IMG/VR virus record: IMGVR_UViG_3300037071_001584
Span: 58,776 to 78,775 of that record
DNA: 20,000 nt
Direction: 5' to 3' (one strand)
Origin: an uncultured virus (IMG/VR IMGVR_UViG_3300037071_001584)
Taxonomy: Duplodnaviria; Heunggongvirae; Uroviricota; Caudoviricetes; Crassvirales
Each line of letters begins with the position of its first letter. Within the stretch, counting starts at the first letter, position 1. Made by a program: the position numbers and the translations under genes. Shown here one piece after another: positions 4,585-16,289 of the stretch. The notes below the pieces were generated by a model. It saw nothing but the letters and a program-made list of their open reading frames with translations, searched no databases and was not told the DNA's origin.

Positions 4585-6087
4585 TTATCCTAAAATTGTT
4601 GGTTTCAATGTAAGAGTTCTTGATGGATCTTTTACCATTGCACCTGTACCACACATTGCTGTCATAGTAGCAGAATCTTCCATTAATTGCATAATTCCAC
4701 CTCTACGTCCAGAGAATGGATCTCTAATACCCGCCATGTACCCACGTAACTCATCGTCACCACGTACTTTAATTTTCTGGATATTAGGTTCTTCCATTGA
4801 GCCGATATACAAGATGTCATATCTGTAAGATTCAGCTACACCTCCGTCTGGGTGAAGGATTTTATTACGAACTTTATCATCATACATTGGATCAACTTCC
4901 AACATTACGTGAATGTTATTAGGAGCTCTCCATTCTACGAATTGGAACCCTGCAATAAATGCGTTATCGTTAAATTTAGAAGAAACTTTTCCGATTGCAT
5001 TTTGATTTGTGTTATCGAACAATTCTTTCCAACCAGATGCTGCTTGTGTTGCTGCTCTATTGAATTGAGCTGCTCCACGTTCTCCAGTTCTCATCATGAA
5101 CTTTCTTTCACTGAAATCTAACTTACCTTCTGACAACTCAGACAATACATCTTCTAAAAGACGAATTGTAAATTTGTTGTAAGAGATAGTGTTAGATACC
5201 TCCATTTGTTCACGAATTCCAGAACCTGCTTTAATCTCGATATTAGAATTACCTTTGTTCAAGTAACGTCCTTTTTCATCACGGTTAGTTCTACCAAACA
5301 TAATAGTACGTGATTTAATTCTTGAGAATGCTTTTTCAAACTGCCAATATACTTCTTGCATCCAAGTAGTAGATTTGTGAACTTTTCCTGTATTAGGATT
5401 ACGTGTCTCAATACCTGCAAAATATACAGGCTCTACTTTACAATCAATCATTGCTCCAGACACTTTATGTTCCATACGTAATGTAGAAACTGAGTTTCTC
5501 ATTAAGTAAGGAGAAGTGAACTGGATTCCAGCACCTTGAATAGACAACTCGTCTTCAGCATAAGCAGACTCGATAGAGAATCTGTTACCTGGAGTGAACT
5601 CGTCAAATGGAATACCTGCTAAGGATTCTTGACCACCCCACACTTCACAGGTATATGTATAACTAGTTCCGTTTTCATATGGCTCTTCTAAAATTCTTAC
5701 CTGATAAGTGTCAGGTCTTGGACCTGCAATTACATGCATTTTAGTAAACCATTTTTCAGCGAAAGTCAATTGGAATTGAGTACGACCAGCACCTACATTC
5801 CCTGTTATAACATTTACACCATCAACTTGTGCGTAGCCAGCGATAGGGATGTTTCTCTCATCACTACCAACTACTTTCCATACAAAATCATCTGCTGTAT
5901 TTAATACTTTCTCAGGGAACAAAGACAAGGTTGTGTCAAGGTTTTTCATCCCTGAGTTTTGTAGCAATACAGTTGTCAATGGAGAAATCAATTGTGGTTG
6001 TGTACCAAAAATTGCTCCAATGTGATTTTTTAATGTAAGGCCAGACCATGCCTTGCCTTTAATCATTACAAACTTGCCTAAACTCAT
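4585..6087 (-). CDS. Major capsid protein, crAss-like
   Basis: 500 aa with WSGLTLKNHIG, IKAGSGIREQ, TGERGAAQF and HPDGGVAESYRYDI. Order is terminase-portal-scaffold-capsid, and a terminator follows. Confidence 0.92.
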   Translation of the reverse strand: MSLGKFVMIKGKAWSGLTLKNHIGAIFGTQPQLISPLTTVLLQNSGMKNLDTTLSLFPEKVLNTADDFVWKVVGSDERNIPIAGYAQVDGVNVITGNVGAGRTQFQLTFAEKWFTKMHVIAGPRPDTYQVRILEEPYENGTSYTYTCEVWGGQESLAGIPFDEFTPGNRFSIESAYAEDELSIQGAGIQFTSPYLMRNSVSTLRMEHKVSGAMIDCKVEPVYFAGIETRNPNTGKVHKSTTWMQEVYWQFEKAFSRIKSRTIMFGRTNRDEKGRYLNKGNSNIEIKAGSGIREQMEVSNTISYNKFTIRLLEDVLSELSEGKLDFSERKFMMRTGERGAAQFNRAATQAASGWKELFDNTNQNAIGKVSSKFNDNAFIAGFQFVEWRAPNNIHVMLEVDPMYDDKVRNKILHPDGGVAESYRYDILYIGSMEEPNIQKIKVRGDDELRGYMAGIRDPFSGRRGGIMQLMEDSATMTAMCGTGAMVKDPSRTLTLKPTILG

Positions 6088-7258: not shown

Positions 7259-7277
7259 TATTAAGTAATAGCTTTTA
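7259..7277. promoter_or_regulatory. 19-bp upstream box, copy 1
   Basis: TATTAAGTAATAGCTTTTA; near-identical copies at 9776 and 19063. Confidence 0.75.
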
Positions 7278-9683
7278 TTTAGTTGTGGTTTTCTTCTTGA
7301 TTCTAGATATGGAGTTAGATTCTTTTTTAAGCACTACATCGTCTGCATGTTTCTTCATGTCATTGTCTAATGCTTTCATTTTAAGAATGTAATCATCTCT
7401 TCTTTTTTGAACATCTAAATCAAACTTGTCTCTAGCAAGAGGATCTTCAATACCATCTTCGGCTTCAACTTCACCATCACCTACTGAAGCACTAAGTTCA
7501 GCTATATAACGTTTAGTATCATTATCTCTTTGATTAAGCATATCTTCTTGTTGCATTTTTTTATTCTCTAGATCAGCTTGTTGAGCCATTGCAGCTTGTT
7601 GGTCTTTAGATTGTTGTTGAGAAGCTTCTTGTGCTCTTTGATGTTGCAACTCTTCTGCTTCCTCTAATCTTCTTCTCATGTCCATTAATGAAGGGCTAAA
7701 GTAAATATCCATAATAGTAGACATGCTTCCGCCATTTTGAACGAATGCTTGTGCGCTTTGCTTAATGAATTGTTCAAGCTCTTGTGTTTTACTAGAATTG
7801 GTACAAACTATCCCATAGTCATTTTCAGAGAACTCATCTCCTTCTAAATTAAGAATTTGAATAGACTGATCATCTAGAATGTATTGGACTTTCTTATTGT
7901 TACCTTTCAATGCTATCTTAGCTGTCTCAAGGAATGTTTCAAGTACTCTTAACTTACACTCTTCATGTAACATAAACCAATACTCTGTAATATGGCTAGA
8001 CTGATTAACAGATCTTTCTACACCACCTACAGTCTCTCTATTACTAATTTGACCTTGACGTTGCGCTGTAACACCAGCAATCTCACCCATCTCCATTTTA
8101 ATAAACTCAAGCAATTGAATGTGTTGTTGAATGTAAGAACCTGTCTCCATATCTATTACACGTCCACCTTGAGTATTCATAGAACCAGCAAGCTTACCTG
8201 TAGCGGCACCTTGATTTCCCTCTTTAAACGAGTCGATCACAGCAATCTTATTTACGACTGCGAAGTGCATCCATTTATCAATCTCCCAGTTCTCAGGTAC
8301 CTTAGCGATGTCTAATTCAAAGATCTTACCGTAGTTAGAAGCAATAGCCTTATTAAGTCTATCCCAAATAACATCATACATGTATTGGTAATTCTTACAT
8401 CTATCTACTAGAGATACTGCTTTAGATTGATTAGTATTGTAAATCTGTCCTACAATCCCAGGACTACATATTGATGGATTGTTTATTCTATTATATTGAA
8501 CTTTACGTGGTTTAACATTTAGATAAATATCTTTACCTATCTTAACACCTTCCCACCATTCATTCACCCATAGCTTCTCAACTTCTTCTCCTAATGTTGG
8601 ATCTGGTATATATTCTTCTGATGCAATTTTAGATTGCTCATTACCATACTCATCATAGAATTTAACTTTCTTAATCTGTTTAATTGATTTCCAGAACACT
8701 TTTAATACACGTATGTTGCCTGTATCATCTGTATAGTTAGATCCAAAGAAGTGACCATTAAGTTCAGCTAAGTTAAAGATTGTGTCATACATTCCTTCTA
8801 CGCCAGTATTCAATGCATCACGTAACAATACGTGGTTGTTCTGATCATCTGAATAACTTCCTTTAGATGAAGTTGTAGAATACTCTAAGATATAATCTAT
8901 ATCCTCAGGTTTCAATTCATCATGATAGTTATCTATAATCTTATTAGGAGACCAGTGATCTTGTATAATAATAATAGAAGAGTCTTCTATTCTGTCTGAA
9001 TTACCTGATCTAACTGAGTGAACCTTAAGTGGATTAAGTTTAATAAGAACAGGTTCGTCTTGAACTATATCACATTGATAGATCTCTTCAGCAAAGATTA
9101 AAGCATCTTTAAATCCATCATTAAATGTTCTTGCGAATCGTTGTTCTTGGTAATAGTGTCTTATAATTTGATTTGCTGTCTTCTCTCTAATGTCTTGCCA
9201 AGTATACTTCATATGCTTACCAAGTTCTTCCATCTTAGCCTTTAACTCATCATCTTGATAGTTGGCTTCAAAGAACTCTTGCATCCTTTGTAAGAGAAAA
9301 GCTTTCTTGTCTTCCTCTTTCTTAGATATAGCATCTGGATTTGTAACTACAAAAGACCAATCAAATCTTCTTTTAATTTCCTCACCTACTAATAGATCTA
9401 TCTTAGGTACTAATATAGGATTGTGAGGCAAATTATCTGGTACGAAACTAGCATCTATCTGATGTGGATTAACCACATTAGTTAAATCTCTAATGTCAAC
9501 AATACCATTATATAAATTAAGGTTTATAATTTTGTTTTGCAAACTCTTTCTAACCCTTTCATTATTGTAGAATGAGTGTCTGTCTGCATAGTCAATGTTA
9601 CTGATCCTCCATTCCTTAGTCTTCTCCTTGTAAGGAAGACGCTGTCTAGGCATTATCAGACTATTAATCATTGGTACTGGCAT
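7275..9683 (-). CDS. Portal protein, crAss-like
   Basis: 802 aa with PKIDLLVGEEIKR, WVNEWWEGVKIG and GVTAQRQGQISNRETVGGVERSV; directly after the large terminase. Confidence 0.92.
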   Translation of the reverse strand: MPVPMINSLIMPRQRLPYKEKTKEWRISNIDYADRHSFYNNERVRKSLQNKIINLNLYNGIVDIRDLTNVVNPHQIDASFVPDNLPHNPILVPKIDLLVGEEIKRRFDWSFVVTNPDAISKKEEDKKAFLLQRMQEFFEANYQDDELKAKMEELGKHMKYTWQDIREKTANQIIRHYYQEQRFARTFNDGFKDALIFAEEIYQCDIVQDEPVLIKLNPLKVHSVRSGNSDRIEDSSIIIIQDHWSPNKIIDNYHDELKPEDIDYILEYSTTSSKGSYSDDQNNHVLLRDALNTGVEGMYDTIFNLAELNGHFFGSNYTDDTGNIRVLKVFWKSIKQIKKVKFYDEYGNEQSKIASEEYIPDPTLGEEVEKLWVNEWWEGVKIGKDIYLNVKPRKVQYNRINNPSICSPGIVGQIYNTNQSKAVSLVDRCKNYQYMYDVIWDRLNKAIASNYGKIFELDIAKVPENWEIDKWMHFAVVNKIAVIDSFKEGNQGAATGKLAGSMNTQGGRVIDMETGSYIQQHIQLLEFIKMEMGEIAGVTAQRQGQISNRETVGGVERSVNQSSHITEYWFMLHEECKLRVLETFLETAKIALKGNNKKVQYILDDQSIQILNLEGDEFSENDYGIVCTNSSKTQELEQFIKQSAQAFVQNGGSMSTIMDIYFSPSLMDMRRRLEEAEELQHQRAQEASQQQSKDQQAAMAQQADLENKKMQQEDMLNQRDNDTKRYIAELSASVGDGEVEAEDGIEDPLARDKFDLDVQKRRDDYILKMKALDNDMKKHADDVVLKKESNSISRIKKKTTTK

Positions 9684-9775: not shown

Positions 9776-9794
9776 TATTAAGTAATAGCTATTA
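9776..9794. promoter_or_regulatory. 19-bp upstream box, copy 2
   Basis: TATTAAGTAATAGCTATTA. Confidence 0.75.
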
Positions 9795-12002
9795 TTTAAA
9801 ATTCCTGCTAAAGAAAGGATCTTCTGATATCTTCTTAATGCGTTTATGTTCATTACTTTTAGCAGAATTAGTTCTTTTAACTCTATCCTCTCTAAGTATA
9901 AATAACATACCTGCAGAAGACACCCTATCGAAGTTACCATCTGAGTTCCAGGCAATACATTCTTCTAAGTAAGGAATAGTTCTAATAAGGTGTAAATTAA
10001 GTCTTTGATCTTCTTCATCTCCTTCGTTGTGTCTTTTTAACATAAATTGAGCTTGCAACAGTCTACCCCACTTGTTAACTTCTTTGTTAGCATGTGTACC
10101 TTTAGCCTTATTTCCATATAGATTAGTTGCTTTAACCATATCCATATCTTTAAGAATTTGAGGAACATCCGCTAAATAGTGTAAACAATTACGAGCATCA
10201 AAATAACTAAACAATCCTTTTAAATTAGATTCATAGTTAGCTTCACCATTATAAAACTTCAATACACGTAAGGCTGTTTCATATGCATCATTAGCAAGTC
10301 TAGGTCTACCAGTATACTCACAAACTATACGATCTGTGAATGTATCAAATCCGATAATACTAAATAAAGAAGTACCGGTATCAGCATCAATAGGGTCAAT
10401 TCCAAATATATATCTACCCCTTGTAACCACCCCTTCATTATTCTTCTTAGGCATCTCAAATATCTCAAGACATCCAGTTCTATCTGTATCTGAACTATCA
10501 TAAGCTCTTAAAGGAAACTTATCTGTAGGCTTCCATTCAACATCTCCAGTAGTTCCATACACTAGTTCTCCAATATAATGCTCTGCAAGAAAAGCCTCTT
10601 TACGAGGTCCAATTGATTCAAGGTAGTCTTTTATATCAGCAACAGGAAACACTGTCCCCTCTGTACGCATAATAGCCTCCTGAGGCGTGATAGGTTCCTC
10701 TGCCTTTCTCTGAGTAATAGCAGAAGCATCTGATGAACTATATTTAATAGTATGACGTTCCATTAATAATTCAAGTATAGCCTTGATAATATCTGGCTCG
10801 CCTGTCTTAATATCATAACATCCATTTCTATTTAAATATGCTCCCCAAAAGAATCCACATTCAGTTTCTCCATGAGCTCCTTTATCATATACATTAGGCA
10901 GTCCATATATATTATATGCTGCAGGTCTATAGAACAGCTTTTCAGAACCTGAGAATGAAGCACCTTCAACACCTCCAGTTCCACCTGCTAACATAAATCC
11001 TGTATTCACACTACCATCCTGTACTGCTTTCAAGTTAACGTTCCAAGCTTTCTCTAGATTAGGAAACAAACCATCTTCTTCATAATGAATTAATGGTCCT
11101 CTAATACCTCTAGCTTTATCTGGGTTATCCTTCATTGATATACAGAATACAGACGATAGGAGCCCTTTACGTGAACCATATTCATCTTTGTATCCTAACT
11201 GTACGTTCATCTCTTTTGTTGCATCTATCGTACGCATACGAGGCAATGGAGTGTGTTCAGCTATCCAGTCAAGACAGTCAAGTACCTTACCCCATATACC
11301 CTTATCACCAGAAAGGAAACCTTTATCTGATGCAAGGTGGAAGTTAGGATTACCTGATCCAGGAAACACATACATGTTCCTAGGAGACTCAGATGCATTC
11401 TTGAAACTAAATCCAATACCCCTTGTCTTAAGTATCTTACCATGTTTACCTAGGCGCTTTGCTCTTGCTGTATAGTGATAGTATAGATAATCTCCTAACC
11501 ATGTCTTAGCAAAGTCTTTAACACGCTCTCCTTGTGAACGTTCTTCTTTCTTACCTTGAGCAATAACCTTAGCTAACCATATAGGACTATAGTTCCAATA
11601 GAAATACAGCTCTCCTGGAATCCATTCTCCATCTTCACGTACCATTCCATACTTCCAACGTTTAAGTTCTTCTCTCCAGAATTCAGCATATTCAGATTTA
11701 GGATTACTATTTGGCGCTATATTTGTATACTTACCATTACGCTTAAAGAACAATGATCGTTCTCTAAAGTAATCCATGTTCTCAAGTATATGAGGATTAG
11801 TTATATCTACAAGTTTGCGTCCATCATCATACATTGTATCTACAGGTCTATCTTTAACAAACCCACGTATATGTTCAGGAGCAATAAGGTTCTTTAAGAA
11901 CTTTACTGTAGCTAAATACTCTAATAGATTATCCCATACTTCTTTAGGTACTGAATTCTGAAGTTCTTCTGTTATAGGTGTTTGATATCTGTTTAATTCC
12001 AT
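9792..12002 (-). CDS. terL: Terminase large subunit
   Basis: 736 aa with Walker A-like KTRGIGFS, Walker B IHYEEDG, and nuclease motifs YIFGIDPID and NFDRVSSA; upstream of portal. Confidence 0.93.
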   Translation of the reverse strand: MELNRYQTPITEELQNSVPKEVWDNLLEYLATVKFLKNLIAPEHIRGFVKDRPVDTMYDDGRKLVDITNPHILENMDYFRERSLFFKRNGKYTNIAPNSNPKSEYAEFWREELKRWKYGMVREDGEWIPGELYFYWNYSPIWLAKVIAQGKKEERSQGERVKDFAKTWLGDYLYYHYTARAKRLGKHGKILKTRGIGFSFKNASESPRNMYVFPGSGNPNFHLASDKGFLSGDKGIWGKVLDCLDWIAEHTPLPRMRTIDATKEMNVQLGYKDEYGSRKGLLSSVFCISMKDNPDKARGIRGPLIHYEEDGLFPNLEKAWNVNLKAVQDGSVNTGFMLAGGTGGVEGASFSGSEKLFYRPAAYNIYGLPNVYDKGAHGETECGFFWGAYLNRNGCYDIKTGEPDIIKAILELLMERHTIKYSSSDASAITQRKAEEPITPQEAIMRTEGTVFPVADIKDYLESIGPRKEAFLAEHYIGELVYGTTGDVEWKPTDKFPLRAYDSSDTDRTGCLEIFEMPKKNNEGVVTRGRYIFGIDPIDADTGTSLFSIIGFDTFTDRIVCEYTGRPRLANDAYETALRVLKFYNGEANYESNLKGLFSYFDARNCLHYLADVPQILKDMDMVKATNLYGNKAKGTHANKEVNKWGRLLQAQFMLKRHNEGDEEDQRLNLHLIRTIPYLEECIAWNSDGNFDRVSSAGMLFILREDRVKRTNSAKSNEHKRIKKISEDPFFSRNFK

Positions 12003-13456
12003 ACGCTTGGATTAAGTACTATACAGTCTGTAGATAGTACAGTTTTAGCTACTGACGCTGCATTCTCTAATGCACACCTAGTAACCTTTAATGGATCTAT
12101 AATGTTATTTAAAAACATATTCTTACTTGTATTAATCTTAGTTCCATTTGCAGCAATCATTCTAAATGGAGAAGTAAGCGACTCTGTTATTTGAAACTCT
12201 GGAGTGTTTTCTAAATAATCACCAAAGAATAGTTCTAAAGATTTGTACAAAGCAACCCCTCCACCTTCCACAATACCTTCTTCTAATGCACATGCCACTG
12301 CAAGTACTGCATCATCATATCTATCTTTGCGTTCTTTCATTTCAATCTCAGACTTACCGCCTACACGTATTAGTGTAGCCTTGGCTGTAAGGTTTTCAAT
12401 TCTTTTATTTAGAAGGTTCTTGTCGTAGTCAGACAAGTCAGGCAAGTCAGACAATCCTTTAATACCATTTACTATCTCATCTACGTTTATATCTTCATGT
12501 TTTACAAGTAAAGAATGATTCTTTGTAATTGTACAAGACTCCAGCTTGCCTAAACAGTTCGAATGAGCTGCTTTTCCTTGCGCTAGAGACACGATCTCTG
12601 CTCCAGTGAAGTCTGATATATCTCGAAGAAAATCTTTCCTTACAGGGCCAAATCCAGGAGTCTTAATTACACACAGATTTATGTTGCCTGACATTACATT
12701 TGTCTCTAACTTACGCATCTCTTTCTCAGACACATGTTCTGCAATGATAAGTAATGATTCATCTACAATAGATATCTTTGTCAGAATAGTCTTAAGTAGG
12801 TTCAGGTCTTCAATCTTACCATCAACAATCAATACGTGTGGATTACTAAACTCACATGTTTCTTTAGGAGTGTTTGCAAACCTTTTAGAGAAGAACGACA
12901 CATCCAATTTCATACCACTAATTTCCTCAATAGCATCTTCCAGACTATTAGACTCTTCTACTTTAACTATAGAAGAAAAATTATAAGCCTGTTGAATAAT
13001 ATTACCAATCTGTATATCGTTATTAGCAGATATACTAGCAACATATTTAATGTCTTCACGTTTTAATTCTCTTGAATTATCTTTTAAGTGTTGTAATACT
13101 TTAGGAATTATATCTTCAAAGGCTTTGTTAATCTCAAGTGAGTTGTAGCCTTTAAGGTTTTGTATAAATGCATTTGCCAATACTATTGCTGTAGTAGTTC
13201 CATCACCTGCTTGATCTACTGTTCGTTCTGCGACCTCTTTGACAAGGATCGCACCAAGCTGCTCAATTGGATCTTTAAAGTTAATTGCTCTAGCAACTGA
13301 CACTCCATCTTTTGTAACTCGTGGTTGTCCGTACTCATCACATATAATGACAGTTCTCCCACTTGGTCCCATTGTAGACGCAACTCCAGAATGCAACTTT
13401 CTGACTCCTTCGAATAATCTGTTTCTTGCTTCATCTGTAAAAAATATTTCTCCCAT
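11993..13456 (-). CDS. groEL: Phage-encoded group I chaperonin GroEL, shortened (487 aa)
   Basis: TMGPSGR, TKDGVSVA, AGDGTTTA, KTPGFG, EMKERKDRYDDA, EEGIVEGGG and IIDPLKVTRCALENAASVA motifs; no GGM tail. Confidence 0.96.
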   Translation of the reverse strand: MGEIFFTDEARNRLFEGVRKLHSGVASTMGPSGRTVIICDEYGQPRVTKDGVSVARAINFKDPIEQLGAILVKEVAERTVDQAGDGTTTAIVLANAFIQNLKGYNSLEINKAFEDIIPKVLQHLKDNSRELKREDIKYVASISANNDIQIGNIIQQAYNFSSIVKVEESNSLEDAIEEISGMKLDVSFFSKRFANTPKETCEFSNPHVLIVDGKIEDLNLLKTILTKISIVDESLLIIAEHVSEKEMRKLETNVMSGNINLCVIKTPGFGPVRKDFLRDISDFTGAEIVSLAQGKAAHSNCLGKLESCTITKNHSLLVKHEDINVDEIVNGIKGLSDLPDLSDYDKNLLNKRIENLTAKATLIRVGGKSEIEMKERKDRYDDAVLAVACALEEGIVEGGGVALYKSLELFFGDYLENTPEFQITESLTSPFRMIAANGTKINTSKNMFLNNIIDPLKVTRCALENAASVAKTVLSTDCIVLNPSVWN

Positions 13457-13458
13457 GA

Positions 13459-14025
13459 TTAATCTATTACGAGACCATCCTCAAATAATCCCATTGTTCT
13501 ACTTCCCCTAGTTCTTCCTTCTAATTCTTTTTGCTCAGCTAACACTTCTTTATAAGCAGCTTTTAAGTTCTGCATTATCTTTGGAAGCTTCTCTTGAGCA
13601 GTTGTAATCATAGGCAACGTAGTTACTGTTGCTCCATTATTAGTTCTCTCTCTTAATAGTTCATCTGTTATTCTAAGATACTCACTCATATCTCCTACAG
13701 ATTTAAGTGCATCTTGATATAGTTTTCCAATAACACTTACACTTCTTTCTCTATAGAAAGCTATTGCTTCTTGTACTTGTCTATCCATTGTCCAATCTTC
13801 AGGTAGACCTACATCTTTAATTATCTCCTTTTCTCTTTCTAAATCATTTGTTATATACATATAGTCAGACCTAATATCTACATAGAAATATATAAATAAC
13901 ATTTCTTTAAATGCAGTTTCTTTATTCCTACTCTTGTCTTTCTTAAGTATAGCCTTGAATGGCAATAGTCCCCATGCTTCTGGAGCAATTGTTAGACTGT
14001 AATCATGCATTTCAAATATCTTCAT
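13459..14025 (-). CDS. Conserved crAss-like helical protein upstream of terminase; putative terminase small subunit
   Basis: Likely start MKIFEM at 14025, because the track start at 14055 lies within a terminator stem. Motifs DKSRNKETAFKEMLFIYFYVDIRSDY and GLPEDW. The TerS role is inferred from position only. Confidence 0.55.
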   Translation of the reverse strand: MKIFEMHDYSLTIAPEAWGLLPFKAILKKDKSRNKETAFKEMLFIYFYVDIRSDYMYITNDLEREKEIIKDVGLPEDWTMDRQVQEAIAFYRERSVSVIGKLYQDALKSVGDMSEYLRITDELLRERTNNGATVTTLPMITTAQEKLPKIMQNLKAAYKEVLAEQKELEGRTRGSRTMGLFEDGLVID

Positions 14026-14038
14026 ATAATGTTGTTTT

Positions 14039-14074
14039 AAAAAACTATGCCCCATATAAAATATGAGGCTAGTT
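14039..14074 (-). terminator. Probable imperfect intrinsic terminator
   Basis: Minus strand AACTAGCCTCATAT-ttt-ATATGGGGCATAGTT then a T tract. Confidence 0.6.
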
Positions 14075-14439: not shown

Positions 14440-14793
14440 TTATCTATTATCTTTTGCTTTAATAAGTCTTTCATCTATTAGTGCATAAGGCACTCCATCT
14501 ATTTCATATAAATCAACCTTAACCTGCATAACTGCTTCGTATGCATTATTGTCTTCCGACTTTGTGGCAACCATCATTCTTTCAATATCGATGATTACTT
14601 TTTGACCTGGAGATACTTTAATATTCTTCCATTGTATTTCTCCTGCAACTACATATTGAACATCATCTAATACATTATCTGAAAATATCAATACACCATC
14701 TTCTTCTGCTTTATTCAAAGTAATGAATACTTTACCAAATAAAGGTTCTAAAGGAAATACATTTATAACATCTAATACATCATCTTGATTCAT
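14440..14793 (-). CDS. groES: Divergent GroES-like co-chaperonin
   Basis: LEPLFGKVFI ~ IRPLHDRVIV; DGVLIF ~ GGIVL mobile loop; VSPGQKVII ~ VKVGDIVIF; EIDGVPYALIDERLIKAK ~ KIDNEEVLIMSESDILAI. Start at 14793 (ATGA overlap) or 14808. Confidence 0.75.
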   Translation of the reverse strand: MNQDDVLDVINVFPLEPLFGKVFITLNKAEEDGVLIFSDNVLDDVQYVVAGEIQWKNIKVSPGQKVIIDIERMMVATKSEDNNAYEAVMQVKVDLYEIDGVPYALIDERLIKAKDNR

Positions 14794-15077
14794 TCTCTCT
14801 TCTCCCATTTCTCTATCAAATTACTTTTTTGTTTCTTAATCTTTTCATATACCATAAAATTAGTATATAACTTTCCAATGTGTGTATATATAAAATTAGT
14901 TTTAAGTTCTTTAAATTCCTCTTCAGTCATATTATCTTTTACATCTAAATTAGAAATAGTTTCTCTTGTGAACTTAAACTGAGCTTGTACTATCTTCTTG
15001 ACAATATCATCCTGTAAGTTAAACTCTAATCCTATACTATGTATTAATTTCTTAAGTCTAGGATCCTCCGCTTTCAT
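14790..15077 (-). CDS. HU/IHF-like DNA-binding protein
   Basis: 95 aa with a helix-helix N-terminus (LKKLIHSIG...IVKKIVQAQF) and NFIYTHIGKLY strand motif, as in IHF-like genes of crAss-like phages. Confidence 0.65.
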   Translation of the reverse strand: MKAEDPRLKKLIHSIGLEFNLQDDIVKKIVQAQFKFTRETISNLDVKDNMTEEEFKELKTNFIYTHIGKLYTNFMVYEKIKKQKSNLIEKWEKRE

Positions 15078-15465
15078 TATCTACTATGTTAAAGTTAAAT
15101 ATTAATTTAAAGTTCTTTGCTTTTAAATCTAATTCAGGTATATATACTTTAGATATCTCTCCATCTACTATAACATTCTTCTTTCTCAAGTTAGTTAATA
15201 TAGTCTGTAGAGCACTATCTGATAAACCATTCTCAAATACATCATCTTCCTTTATCTTCAACTTAGTATCGTAATCAAACAATACTCTCCATAGTATCTT
15301 ATTGTTGGTGATGTCCTTTCTGTATTGATAATGGTAGTATAGGAAAAGAGCTAATACTTGTTGTTGTTGATTATTCAGCTTATGAAAAGGCTTAGTTATC
15401 TCCATCCACTTAAAGAACAAGTCTTTAAGCTTTACATTCATATTAGCAACTTTACTATTACTCAT
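15058..15465 (-). CDS. Putative winged-helix DNA-binding protein
   Basis: Likely start MSNSK at 15465. PFHKLNNQQQQVL and GLSDSALQTILTNLRKKNVI resemble a MarR-like wHTH. Confidence 0.6.
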   Translation of the reverse strand: MSNSKVANMNVKLKDLFFKWMEITKPFHKLNNQQQQVLALFLYYHYQYRKDITNNKILWRVLFDYDTKLKIKEDDVFENGLSDSALQTILTNLRKKNVIVDGEISKVYIPELDLKAKNFKLIFNFNIVDNESGGS

Positions 15466-15634
15466 CTTCTCTGTCTTTAATTGTTCCTTCTCTTTGAGTG
15501 CTAATTTCGCTTGCAACTATACCGCTTATAAGATTTAATTTATATTTAAGACTATTAATATCGCTTCGTTGTTTAGCACATAATTCTGCTAAACGTTTTA
15601 TTAAGTCATCTTTATCTGCATCATCACTACTCAT
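15458..15634 (-). CDS. 58-aa coiled-coil hypothetical protein; absent from the ORF track
   Basis: MSSDDADKDDLIKRLAELCAKQRSDINSLKYKLNLISGIVASEISTQREGTIKDREDE; fills the gap with 8-nt overlaps on both sides. Confidence 0.7.
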   Translation of the reverse strand: MSSDDADKDDLIKRLAELCAKQRSDINSLKYKLNLISGIVASEISTQREGTIKDREDE

Positions 15635-16289
15635 TCTCTAAATATTTAATTATATCTGTTAATATAGGATTTCTATGATTGGCAGTCAATGTCTTGAATC
15701 CTACTAATCCAGATTCCTGTAGCTTCATAATTCTATGAAGACAACTATTCCCATTGATAGACTTATCTATCTGCTCTTTAGAGCCACAGAAAATCATTTT
15801 TGATCCTTCACCTAGTCTAGTTAAAATAGTCCTGAAATCATTATAATCCATGTCTTGGAACTCATCTACTATAACTACTGACTTAATAAACGTAACACCT
15901 TTAGCTACTTCAATAGGCATAATCTTAATCTCACCTTCTTTCAACATCTTGTCTGTAGCTTCTTTACCTTGGCAAACTTCTAAATTCTGAATGATTGGAA
16001 ACGTATATGGAGCCATCTTTTCTTCTAATGTACCTGGCAGTGCGGCTAGGTTATTCTTAAGCATTGGCCTTGTAATCCATATGTGGTCAATCTTGAACTC
16101 TCTACTTCTTTTTCTAAATGCTTTAAGTGCTGTATGTACAGCTGCTAAAGACTTTCCAGAACCAAAATCTCCTAATAGGAAATTAACATCATATTCGTAG
16201 AATAAAGCAACAAACTCTTTTTGCTCATCATTTAATTCTACCTTAAGTTTAGGTTCTGTTTTAAGAGGTTCTTTTAATGAATTAATCAT
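15627..16289 (-). CDS. phoH: PhoH-family ATPase
   Basis: LNDEQK, Walker A GDFGSGKS, ITRP, LPGTLEEKMAPY, Walker B VIVDEFQD, LTRLGEGSKMIFCG and HRNP. Confidence 0.92.
   Translation of the reverse strand: MINSLKEPLKTEPKLKVELNDEQKEFVALFYEYDVNFLLGDFGSGKSLAAVHTALKAFRKRSREFKIDHIWITRPMLKNNLAALPGTLEEKMAPYTFPIIQNLEVCQGKEATDKMLKEGEIKIMPIEVAKGVTFIKSVVIVDEFQDMDYNDFRTILTRLGEGSKMIFCGSKEQIDKSINGNSCLHRIMKLQESGLVGFKTLTANHRNPILTDIIKYLENE

Follow-up and report, generated by a model that had tools for sequence, protein, structure and literature searches.

How a GroEL ring releases its lid when there is no second ring has long been a question of mechanism, so far studied by way of the engineered single-ring mutant SR1 and of mitochondrial Hsp60. 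Here we analyze a natural GroEL homologue with trimmed ring contacts, encoded by a crAss-like phage; such phages are major viruses of the gut and the sea. Its gene lies in a stretch of 20,000 nucleotides (the window; positions 58,776 to 78,775 of IMG/VR record IMGVR_UViG_3300037071_001584) that lies at the end of a linear virus record of 78,775 bp with an estimated completeness of 78%. The gene, a 487-amino-acid (aa) open reading frame (ORF) at window positions 11993..13456, is on the minus strand, which carries nearly all window genes and all window features located below. In Escherichia coli GroEL, the rings meet at a stabilizing "right" site, E461-R452, and at a signaling "left" site, K105-A109, at the end of helix D, which spans Gly88-Ala109 (PMC5941174). 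The quadruple substitution R452A/E461A/S463A/V464A yields a single-ring GroEL, and single-ring SR1 traps GroES for hours and is functional once the GroEL-GroES interaction has been weakened (PMC5575113). Phage GroELs as such are already known (PMC5649160), as are single-ring viral chaperonins (PMC7185714, PMC9598537). Single-ring heptamers with no need for a co-chaperonin have been described for the phages OBP (gp246) and AR9 (gp228) (PMC9598537). The chaperonin of phage EL, which likewise works without one, has a helix D that is one turn shorter and a loop that replaces helix 462-471 (PMC7185714). In Crassvirales, GroELs and a "10 kDa chaperonin" have been annotated before.

The window protein is an accessory, phage-encoded group I chaperonin from a large viral clade. 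Its ORF matches the Pfam family Cpn60_TCP1 (PF00118; 1.5e-44, 153 bits with a cut-off of 34.3), PHROG 5725 "chaperonin groEL" (1.1e-112), and the NCBIfam subfamily NF009487 (366.5 bits, over the cut-off of 352). It falls below the cut-off of the NCBIfam equivalog TIGR02348 (369.8 versus 582.1 bits) and is thus a divergent member of the GroELs. In a phmmer search of PDB sequences, the best solved relatives were GroELs, headed by a reconstructed ancestral Fibrobacteres-Chlorobi-Bacteroidetes GroEL (9rwr, 3.2e-87), with E. coli GroEL, to which the window protein is 34.6% identical, at ~8e-74. The AlphaFold2 (AF2) model, built from a 79-row alignment, is confident (mean predicted local distance difference test score [pLDDT], 87.6) and shows the equatorial-intermediate-apical fold. 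In a VIA structure search, 483 of its 487 residues aligned with ADP-bound E. coli GroEL (4ki8_A; Z 40.1; root mean square deviation [rmsd], 3.5), and the ADP-bound Hsp60 single ring 9shk_A was matched as well (Z 39.5).

For statements about close relatives, we use the best 120 clusters of at least 7997 homologues at E <=1e-20 (54-100% identity; the 120-member family), which are 479-520 aa long, with one exception of 819 aa, and come from contigs of up to ~105 kb. The ATPase motifs are intact, as the earlier note on this DNA had claimed from the letters alone: D52, D87, T89-T91, D398, and D495 are all present and are kept in 119-120 of the 120 members. The nucleotide-binding motif GDGTTT (G84-T89) lies at 13190..13207, with D87, T89, and T90 kept in 120/120 members and T91 in 119/120; D382, the equivalent of the catalytic D398, lies at 12311..12313 and is D in every member. 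The Gly-Met (GGM) tail, which projects into the cavity of GroEL, is indeed absent, E. coli residues 529-548 being without counterpart. The protein instead ends in ...LNPSVWN, and in place of the tail it carries W486 (11999..12001), two residues from the C terminus and invariant among the 120 members (entropy 0).

At the ring-ring face, the window protein departs from E. coli GroEL (K-12 reference sequence from NC_000913.3, aligned with MAFFT). Window positions 12089-12175 translate, inside the GroEL ORF, to TSPFRMIAANGTKINTSKNMFLNNIIDPL, the very peptide that the earlier note had flagged when it proposed that about 20 residues, including E461, S463, and V464, are missing here. The alignment bears this out, with gaps at E. 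coli 461-477 and 480-483 (helix 462-471 included) and 8 residues between the equivalents of N457 and N487 versus 29 in E. coli. A 10-residue stretch, N437-N446 (12119..12148), thus replaces the 31 residues of E. coli N457-N487, and in the AF2 model residues 437-446 form a coil without any helix (block pLDDT 91 and 83). Independently of MAFFT, each of the three phmmer alignments shown breaks in two at the same place; for 9rwr, query residues 3-438 pair with chain residues 3-456 and query residues 449-481 with chain residues 487-519, leaving 30 chain residues opposite 10 query residues. E461, S463, and V464 have no counterpart in the window protein. R452 is kept, as R432.

Further losses at the same face had escaped the earlier note. 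Residues 101-105 (13142..13156) form a trimmed helix-D end and turn, in which E. coli V107-M111 are absent and K105 is replaced by G. This deletion removes A108, A109, and G110 and with them the tip of helix D; in the AF2 model, the helix spans residues 87-101. In addition, E. coli 431-434, including E434, are missing at the junction Y414/L415 (12212..12217; MAFFT). Given that the elements containing E461 and K105/A109 are both missing, both inter-ring sites are affected rather than one. Of the residues that build the staggered double ring (R452-E461, S463, and V464; K105-A109/D435), the window protein has no counterpart of E461, S463, V464, or A109, and K105 is G.

The losses are shared by its relatives. 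The 461-483 deletion is common to all 120 closest clusters. In an alignment of 124 rows (these clusters plus L011, L012, L017, and E. coli), the 458-486 interval holds 3-10 residues in 98 rows and 13-22 in 24, and only E. coli and L017 have 29. Within the 120-member family, S463 falls in a gap in 119 members, V464 in 111, and E461 in 106; A108, A109, and G110 are gaps in all 120, and the K105 position is D, E, G, or T in 110. E434 is a gap in 55/120, D435 is not conserved, and neither is the R452 position (N in 19, D in 16, E in 14, and Q in 12).

A wider HMMER search, run exhaustively over 1.84 billion representatives of 50%-identity clusters, returned 4038 matches at <=1e-30. The best 150 of these plus the window protein (P0001) gave 151 sequences; the 139 of 440-600 aa were kept and, with 9 references, made up the 148 rows of a FastTree phylogeny from whose columns both trait regions were excluded. 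The window protein sits in a clade of 34 representatives (SH-like support, 99), all with <=17 residues in the interval, and in a subclade of 9 (SH-like support, 96), of which 7 have the helix-D gap and 2 a partial one. Judged from these alignments, the equatorial domain of the clade is trimmed exactly where the rings of bacterial GroEL touch. On the tree, the short interval needs at least 6 state changes, 4 of them forced by well-supported branches, so that similar trimming has evolved repeatedly among the relatives of GroEL, with the phi14:2 group and cr108_1 as examples. Given that 52 of the 145 forks are unresolved and that the joining of OBP and EL is a long-branch pair, such counts of independent losses are approximate.

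On balance, we lean, by a narrow measure, toward the view that the canonical staggered double ring cannot form from these subunits, so that the working unit would be a single heptameric ring, either obligate or readily dissociating as in phage EL. The earlier note had predicted a single ring from one missing segment. The anatomical part of that prediction comes out stronger than was stated, with both contact sites gone or altered, and the step from anatomy to ring number holds less well, since the presence of the segments does not predict the number of rings in the solved phage chaperonins. Several observations indeed weigh against a single ring. The EL chaperonin, without helix 462-471 and with its shorter helix D, is nevertheless reported as mainly a double ring in the absence of nucleotide, held by new 1:1 contacts, and is mainly a tetradecamer also with ADP (PMC7185714). 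Conversely, the AR9-type protein is reported as a single ring (PMC9598537), although its segments are long at both sites (31 and 15 residues). With these two counterexamples, a single ring in the window lineage is something that we infer rather than read off the deletions, and face trimming is best described as accompanying, in phage chaperonins, rings that associate weakly or not at all, without being a reliable predictor of this. Moreover, conservation of the canonical contact residues is only moderate among 96 canonical-length representatives: R452 is matched by R/K in 50 of them and V464 by V in 35, and the E461 position is D/S/E/N. Residue identity is therefore a weak guide to ring contacts. 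Finally, the turn that closes the cut helix D, N-L-K-x-F/Y, is strongly conserved in the 120-member family (N100 and L101, 100%; K102, 95%; F/Y104, ~99%), and this turn or the invariant W486 could form a new contact.

Some of these observations, namely, those on EL, on the conserved turn, and on the variable contact residues, also make up the case for heptamers that are still stacked through substitute contacts, with communication between the rings altered and not abolished. Candidates for such contacts are the conserved turn at the short helix D, the invariant W486, the N terminus of helix E, or a 1:1 register as in apo EL. We consider this arrangement unlikely, though worth keeping in mind. 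The ring-ring face of the window protein has lost three separate elements, and even the substitute interface of EL is small and opens with ATP, the protein being a single ring with ATP at physiological salt (PMC7185714). The replacement loops also vary in both length and sequence (2.8-3.2 bits versus a mean of 1.2), a variability that is not specific to the clade. Residues 404-425 and 430-446 are the most variable of the 120-member family (3.16 and 2.83 bits versus a mean of 1.20) and are hot spots for insertions and deletions, which had suggested unusual freedom of variation in the base loops. This argument was dropped after a control: the same loops are above average in the 96 canonical representatives (ratios, 1.06-1.43) as well as in the 34-member clade (1.25-1.48).

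In an L-INS-i alignment, the window protein shares its gap of 6 residues where helix D ends with an EL-like gp146 and with OBP gp246. For OBP, aligned at 21.5% identity, helix 462-471 is seemingly retained and the hairpin after it lost, so that the short OBP interval is not the same deletion as that of the window protein. Membership of the window protein in the EL/OBP/AR9 lineage was likewise rejected, given identities of 21.5-25.3% (OBP, 21.5%; AR9-type, 22.0%) and the position of the window protein in a different clade of the tree, these proteins sitting on separate long branches.

A candidate lid is encoded 1 kb upstream of GroEL, at 14440..14808, in agreement with the GroES-like partner mentioned in the earlier note. 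The 122-aa product is recognized as GroES-like by fold search only. Cpn10 (PF00166) has no match in the whole 78.8-kb record, the ORF itself has no Pfam match at E values up to 10, no GroES PHROG, and no NCBIfam match, and tblastn found no match to it in 50,697 phage records. Its AF2 model (26 alignment rows), of moderate confidence (pLDDT, 71), shows a β-barrel preceded by a helix at the N terminus, with disorder in the loop of residues 35-45. In a Foldseek search, ranks 1 to 24 were all Cpn10/GroES chains (best E value, 1.2e-3; TM score by target, 0.61). VIA, which works independently of Foldseek, likewise placed GroES 8wuc_a first (Z 8.0; rmsd, 3.2; 83 residues aligned), then Hsp10 4pj1_O (Z 7.8) and T4 gp31 1g31_A (Z 6.0), followed by a plastid co-chaperonin-like chain (Z 5.5) and, from Z 4.2, by the GroES-like domains of alcohol dehydrogenases. 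The disordered loop (EEDGVLIFSDN; 14674..14706; pLDDT <50) is a putative mobile loop that MAFFT aligns with the E. coli GroES loop KSAGGIVLTGS, an alignment that rests on 19% identity and sets the motif G-V-L-I beside GGIVL of GroES.

The GroES-like gene is conserved at this position in 8/8 loci of short-form relatives that have upstream sequence, on the same strand and 1 kb from GroEL. In cr111_1, the gene at the lid position is annotated as "putative 10kDa chaperonin [phiCrAss001]," and the lid-position genes of cr111_1 and cr108_1 weakly match phrog_3188 "co-chaperonin GroES" (1.8e-4 and 1e-3, respectively). The lid gene is thus one of the older members of the crAss gene string, to which some lineages later added GroEL. 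A predicted complex of the GroEL apical domain (residues 176-365) with the 122-aa protein scored 0.02 against a mark of 0.32, which is no answer and carries no weight either way on binding.

The groove that would grip such a lid has itself changed. Apical helices H and I, which line the GroES/substrate groove, are encoded at 12701..12793 and include K222 (E. coli L234), L225 (L237), M247 (L259), E251 (V263), and T252 (V264). Hence, L234 has become K, V263 E, and V264 T, and Y203 has become R, while Y199 (as F), S201, F204, L237, and L259 (as M) are kept. V263 is E in 120/120 family members. In a comparison of the 96 canonical-length representatives with the 34-member clade, the V263 position is I/V/A/L in 89/96 of the former and E/K/R in 31/34 of the latter. 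The V264 position is V/L/I in 60/96 canonical representatives and most commonly T/D/N/S in the clade, L234 is L/I/V in 69/96 versus most commonly K/A/E/S, Y203 is Y in 62/96 versus most commonly A/R/H/K, and R197 is R/K in 72/96 versus most commonly T/V/S/A. In the window protein, R197 is lost and E386, its salt-bridge partner, is kept; the R197-E386 bridge is also reported lost in phage EL (PMC7185714).

Whether the phage ring uses the phage lid is, in our estimate, an evenly balanced matter. A lid-independent open ring, like those of EL gp146, OBP gp246, and AR9 gp228, would share the single or dissociable ring with our preferred reading and differ from it in the lid only, the GroES-like protein serving host GroEL as T4 gp31 does. 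All three characterized phage chaperonins act without a co-chaperonin (PMC9598537, PMC7185714). At the positions with which the groove grips the GroES loop, charged or polar residues have taken over, and with a groove so charged it is just as possible that no lid binds at all. In addition, the GroES-like gene is part of the Crassvirales gene string with or without GroEL and occupies the same position in crAss-like phages most of which apparently have no GroEL, and so it may serve the host protein instead. Among Bacteroides-named phage records, for instance, 32 match the large terminase (TerL) and at most 7 match GroEL, the latter figure being an upper bound because "Bacteroides" is outside the ten commonest names of the GroEL matches and the tenth name has 7 records. 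GroEL is thus an accessory gene within Crassvirales. In contrast, the window protein is much closer to cellular GroEL (34.6%) than to the three lid-independent proteins, it keeps L237, L259, F204, Y199, and S201 of the binding surface, and the two genes lie 1 kb apart on one strand in 8/8 loci. Likewise, in marine viromes, viral GroEL clades are commonly accompanied by their own GroES (PMC5649160). Taken together, we regard the lid-independent open ring as an improbable, if respectable, alternative.

If the phage lid is used, the more polar H/I groove would hold it more weakly, and with a weak grip the lid could detach once ATP has been hydrolyzed, with no second ring needed to signal its release. 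Such behavior would be reminiscent of mitochondrial Hsp60, which binds Hsp10 only transiently (PMC7174398, PMC5575113), and of SR1, which is rescued when its hold on GroES is loosened (PMC5575113). The full proposal, that the crAss-like GroEL clade consists of natural obligate single rings that cycle with a phage lid and do without a trans-ring signal, is one that we put forward tentatively, as possible and still rather doubtful. The phage GroEL would assist, late in infection, in the folding of large head or packaging proteins. From gene position and the T4 gp31 precedent, our guess for its clients is the 500-aa major head protein (4585..6087; phrog_11589, 8.9e-137) or the 736-802-aa terminase and portal proteins.

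A decaying GroEL copy or an assembly artifact might be suspected in a protein that is shorter than any cellular GroEL and under the equivalog cut-off, but this was rejected as extremely improbable: the family is conserved, with the same architecture in more than 120 clusters from several independent sources at 54-77% identity, the reading frame is intact, the catalytic residues do not vary, AF2 yields a confident model, and probable homing inteins in the ATP motif of some relatives are a sign of a gene under selection. These inserts are a feature of GroEL homologues of 819-833 aa (L009:2883-5384 and L014:4729-7230; P0025 and P0155), which carry an insert of ~330 aa between GDG and TTT that holds a LAGLIDADG_3 domain (9.8e-5). 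Judging from its sequence, the insert is probably a homing intein.

The genomic context places the chaperonin in Crassvirales. The hallmarks of the order are present, namely, TerL (9792..12002; phrog_6681, 2.4e-102), the portal protein (7275..9683; phrog_6547, 2.1e-162), and the head protein phrog_11589, together with the gene string of the order. The best reference matches of TerL are to Crassvirales only, at 39-42% identity, with cr111_1 at 41.9% as the best. Its ORF overlaps the GroEL stop by 10 nt, and TerL adjoins GroEL in 11/11 short-form loci that have downstream sequence. A related phage has a TerL of 1120 aa (L015:669-4031) with Intein_splicing (5.5e-11) and LAGLIDADG_3 (6.1e-12) domains. 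Giant ORFs, which are typical of Crassvirales, are found in the record as well (3046, 1822, and 1532 aa). A whole-window megablast against phages gave a single match, to 240 nt of a Kolpuevirus portal gene (77% nucleotide identity), which indicates that there is no close sequenced relative among those phages. The viral contig L004 (IMG/VR; 104,771 bp) encodes a GroEL 100% identical to that of the window, so that this phage, or one very close to it, is represented by a more complete genome.

Upstream of GroEL lies a conserved 198-aa gene (13459..14055), between it and the GroES-like gene. Farther upstream are the HU-like gene (14790..15077; BLASTP to the cr111_1 "protein HU," 5e-14), the VpsT-like gene (15058..15516; BLASTP to VpsT-like genes, 2e-31 to 3e-20), and, before this string, a PhoH-like ATPase gene (15627-16289; phrog_170, 1.4e-48) that is 85-92% identical in the closest relatives. 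The order VpsT-like, HU-like, 122-aa (10-kDa), 198-aa, TerL is the same as annotated in cr111_1 and cr108_1. By BLASTP, the 198-aa protein is 35% identical to cr111_1 gp084 and 32% to its cr108_1 homologue, and in both phages the gene is directly upstream of TerL. An Atlas link to small-terminase clusters (score, 0.76) is a lead only, but the gene may encode the small terminase (TerS), in which case GroEL was inserted between TerS and TerL. In any event, GroEL was inserted between the 198-aa gene and TerL in the window lineage, whereas in phi14:2, cr108_1, and cr111_1 the annotated GroEL is farther upstream, before the VpsT-like gene rather than against TerL. In cr111_1 (L023:864-4860), 24 annotated tRNA genes are arrayed immediately upstream of GroEL. 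The viral contig L017 (4430-6013) encodes a GroEL of canonical length (527 aa, 29-residue interval, 33% identity) with homologues of the 198-aa, HU-like, and VpsT-like genes downstream of it, which suggests that a related phage has its GroEL in another place, perhaps acquired independently.

A literature search, which did not cover subscription journals, returned nothing on the ring state or the deletions of crAss-like phage GroELs and, in the same scope, no account of a large crAss-like GroEL clade with both contact sites lost, a changed groove, and a GroES-fold neighbor. In the main text of the virioplankton survey, the terms "inter-ring," "equatorial," and "single ring" are absent (PMC5649160). 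A natural, abundant, and easily expressed phage GroEL with a candidate lid would offer a new system in which to study single rings. It would give a minimal chaperonin system and a comparative series of subclades with and without helix-D trimming, and it would show what crAss-like phages need extra folding capacity for, the likely clients being the 500-aa head protein and packaging proteins of 700-800 aa. Should the protein prove to be a tetradecamer, the finding would shrink to that of a divergent phage GroEL with loop deletions.

How, then, does the window chaperonin compare with the known systems? With E. coli GroEL/GroES it shares the three-domain fold, the ATP site, and a nearby GroES-fold gene. 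It differs in being without 107-111, 431-434, 461-477, 480-483, and 529-548, in the replacement of R197, L234, V263, and V264, and in a lid gene that has no Cpn10 sequence signature and whose product carries an N-terminal helix. Compared with SR1 (GroEL-SR), three of the four mutated positions (E461, S463, and V464) are physically absent; SR1 was engineered by point mutation, whereas here a whole helix and the tip of helix D were lost naturally and R452 was kept. EL gp146 (PDB 6TMT), OBP gp246 (6HDD), and AR9 gp228 are, like the window protein, phage-encoded GroEL homologues with a reworked ring-ring face, but they belong to jumbo phages and work without a lid, whereas the window derives from a crAss-like genome of ~100 kb with a GroES-fold gene nearby.

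From the same virus order are the annotated reference GroELs of Cellulophaga phage phi14:2 (gp117) and of the uncultured phages cr108_1 and cr111_1, of a similar short length (490, 494, and 510 aa). They also lack the GGM tail and have a shortened 458-486 interval (17, 6, and 20 residues, respectively, versus 29). In contrast to the window protein, to which they are 29-35% identical, they fall outside the 34-member clade and have a helix D of full length (14-15 residues). Mitochondrial Hsp60/Hsp10, finally, is a group I system with single and transient double rings, a weakly held lid, and no negative inter-ring cooperativity (PMC7174398, PMC5575113). Hsp60 keeps the helix and, as minimal contacts, S464/E462 and K109/E105 (PMC7174398), elements that are deleted in the window protein. 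If the full proposal is true, the crAss-like clade would be the viral counterpart of mitochondrial Hsp60/Hsp10 and of the SR1-suppressor systems and, with the ring-ring face lost repeatedly (at least 4 to 6 changes on the tree), the single ring would be a design favored by viruses.

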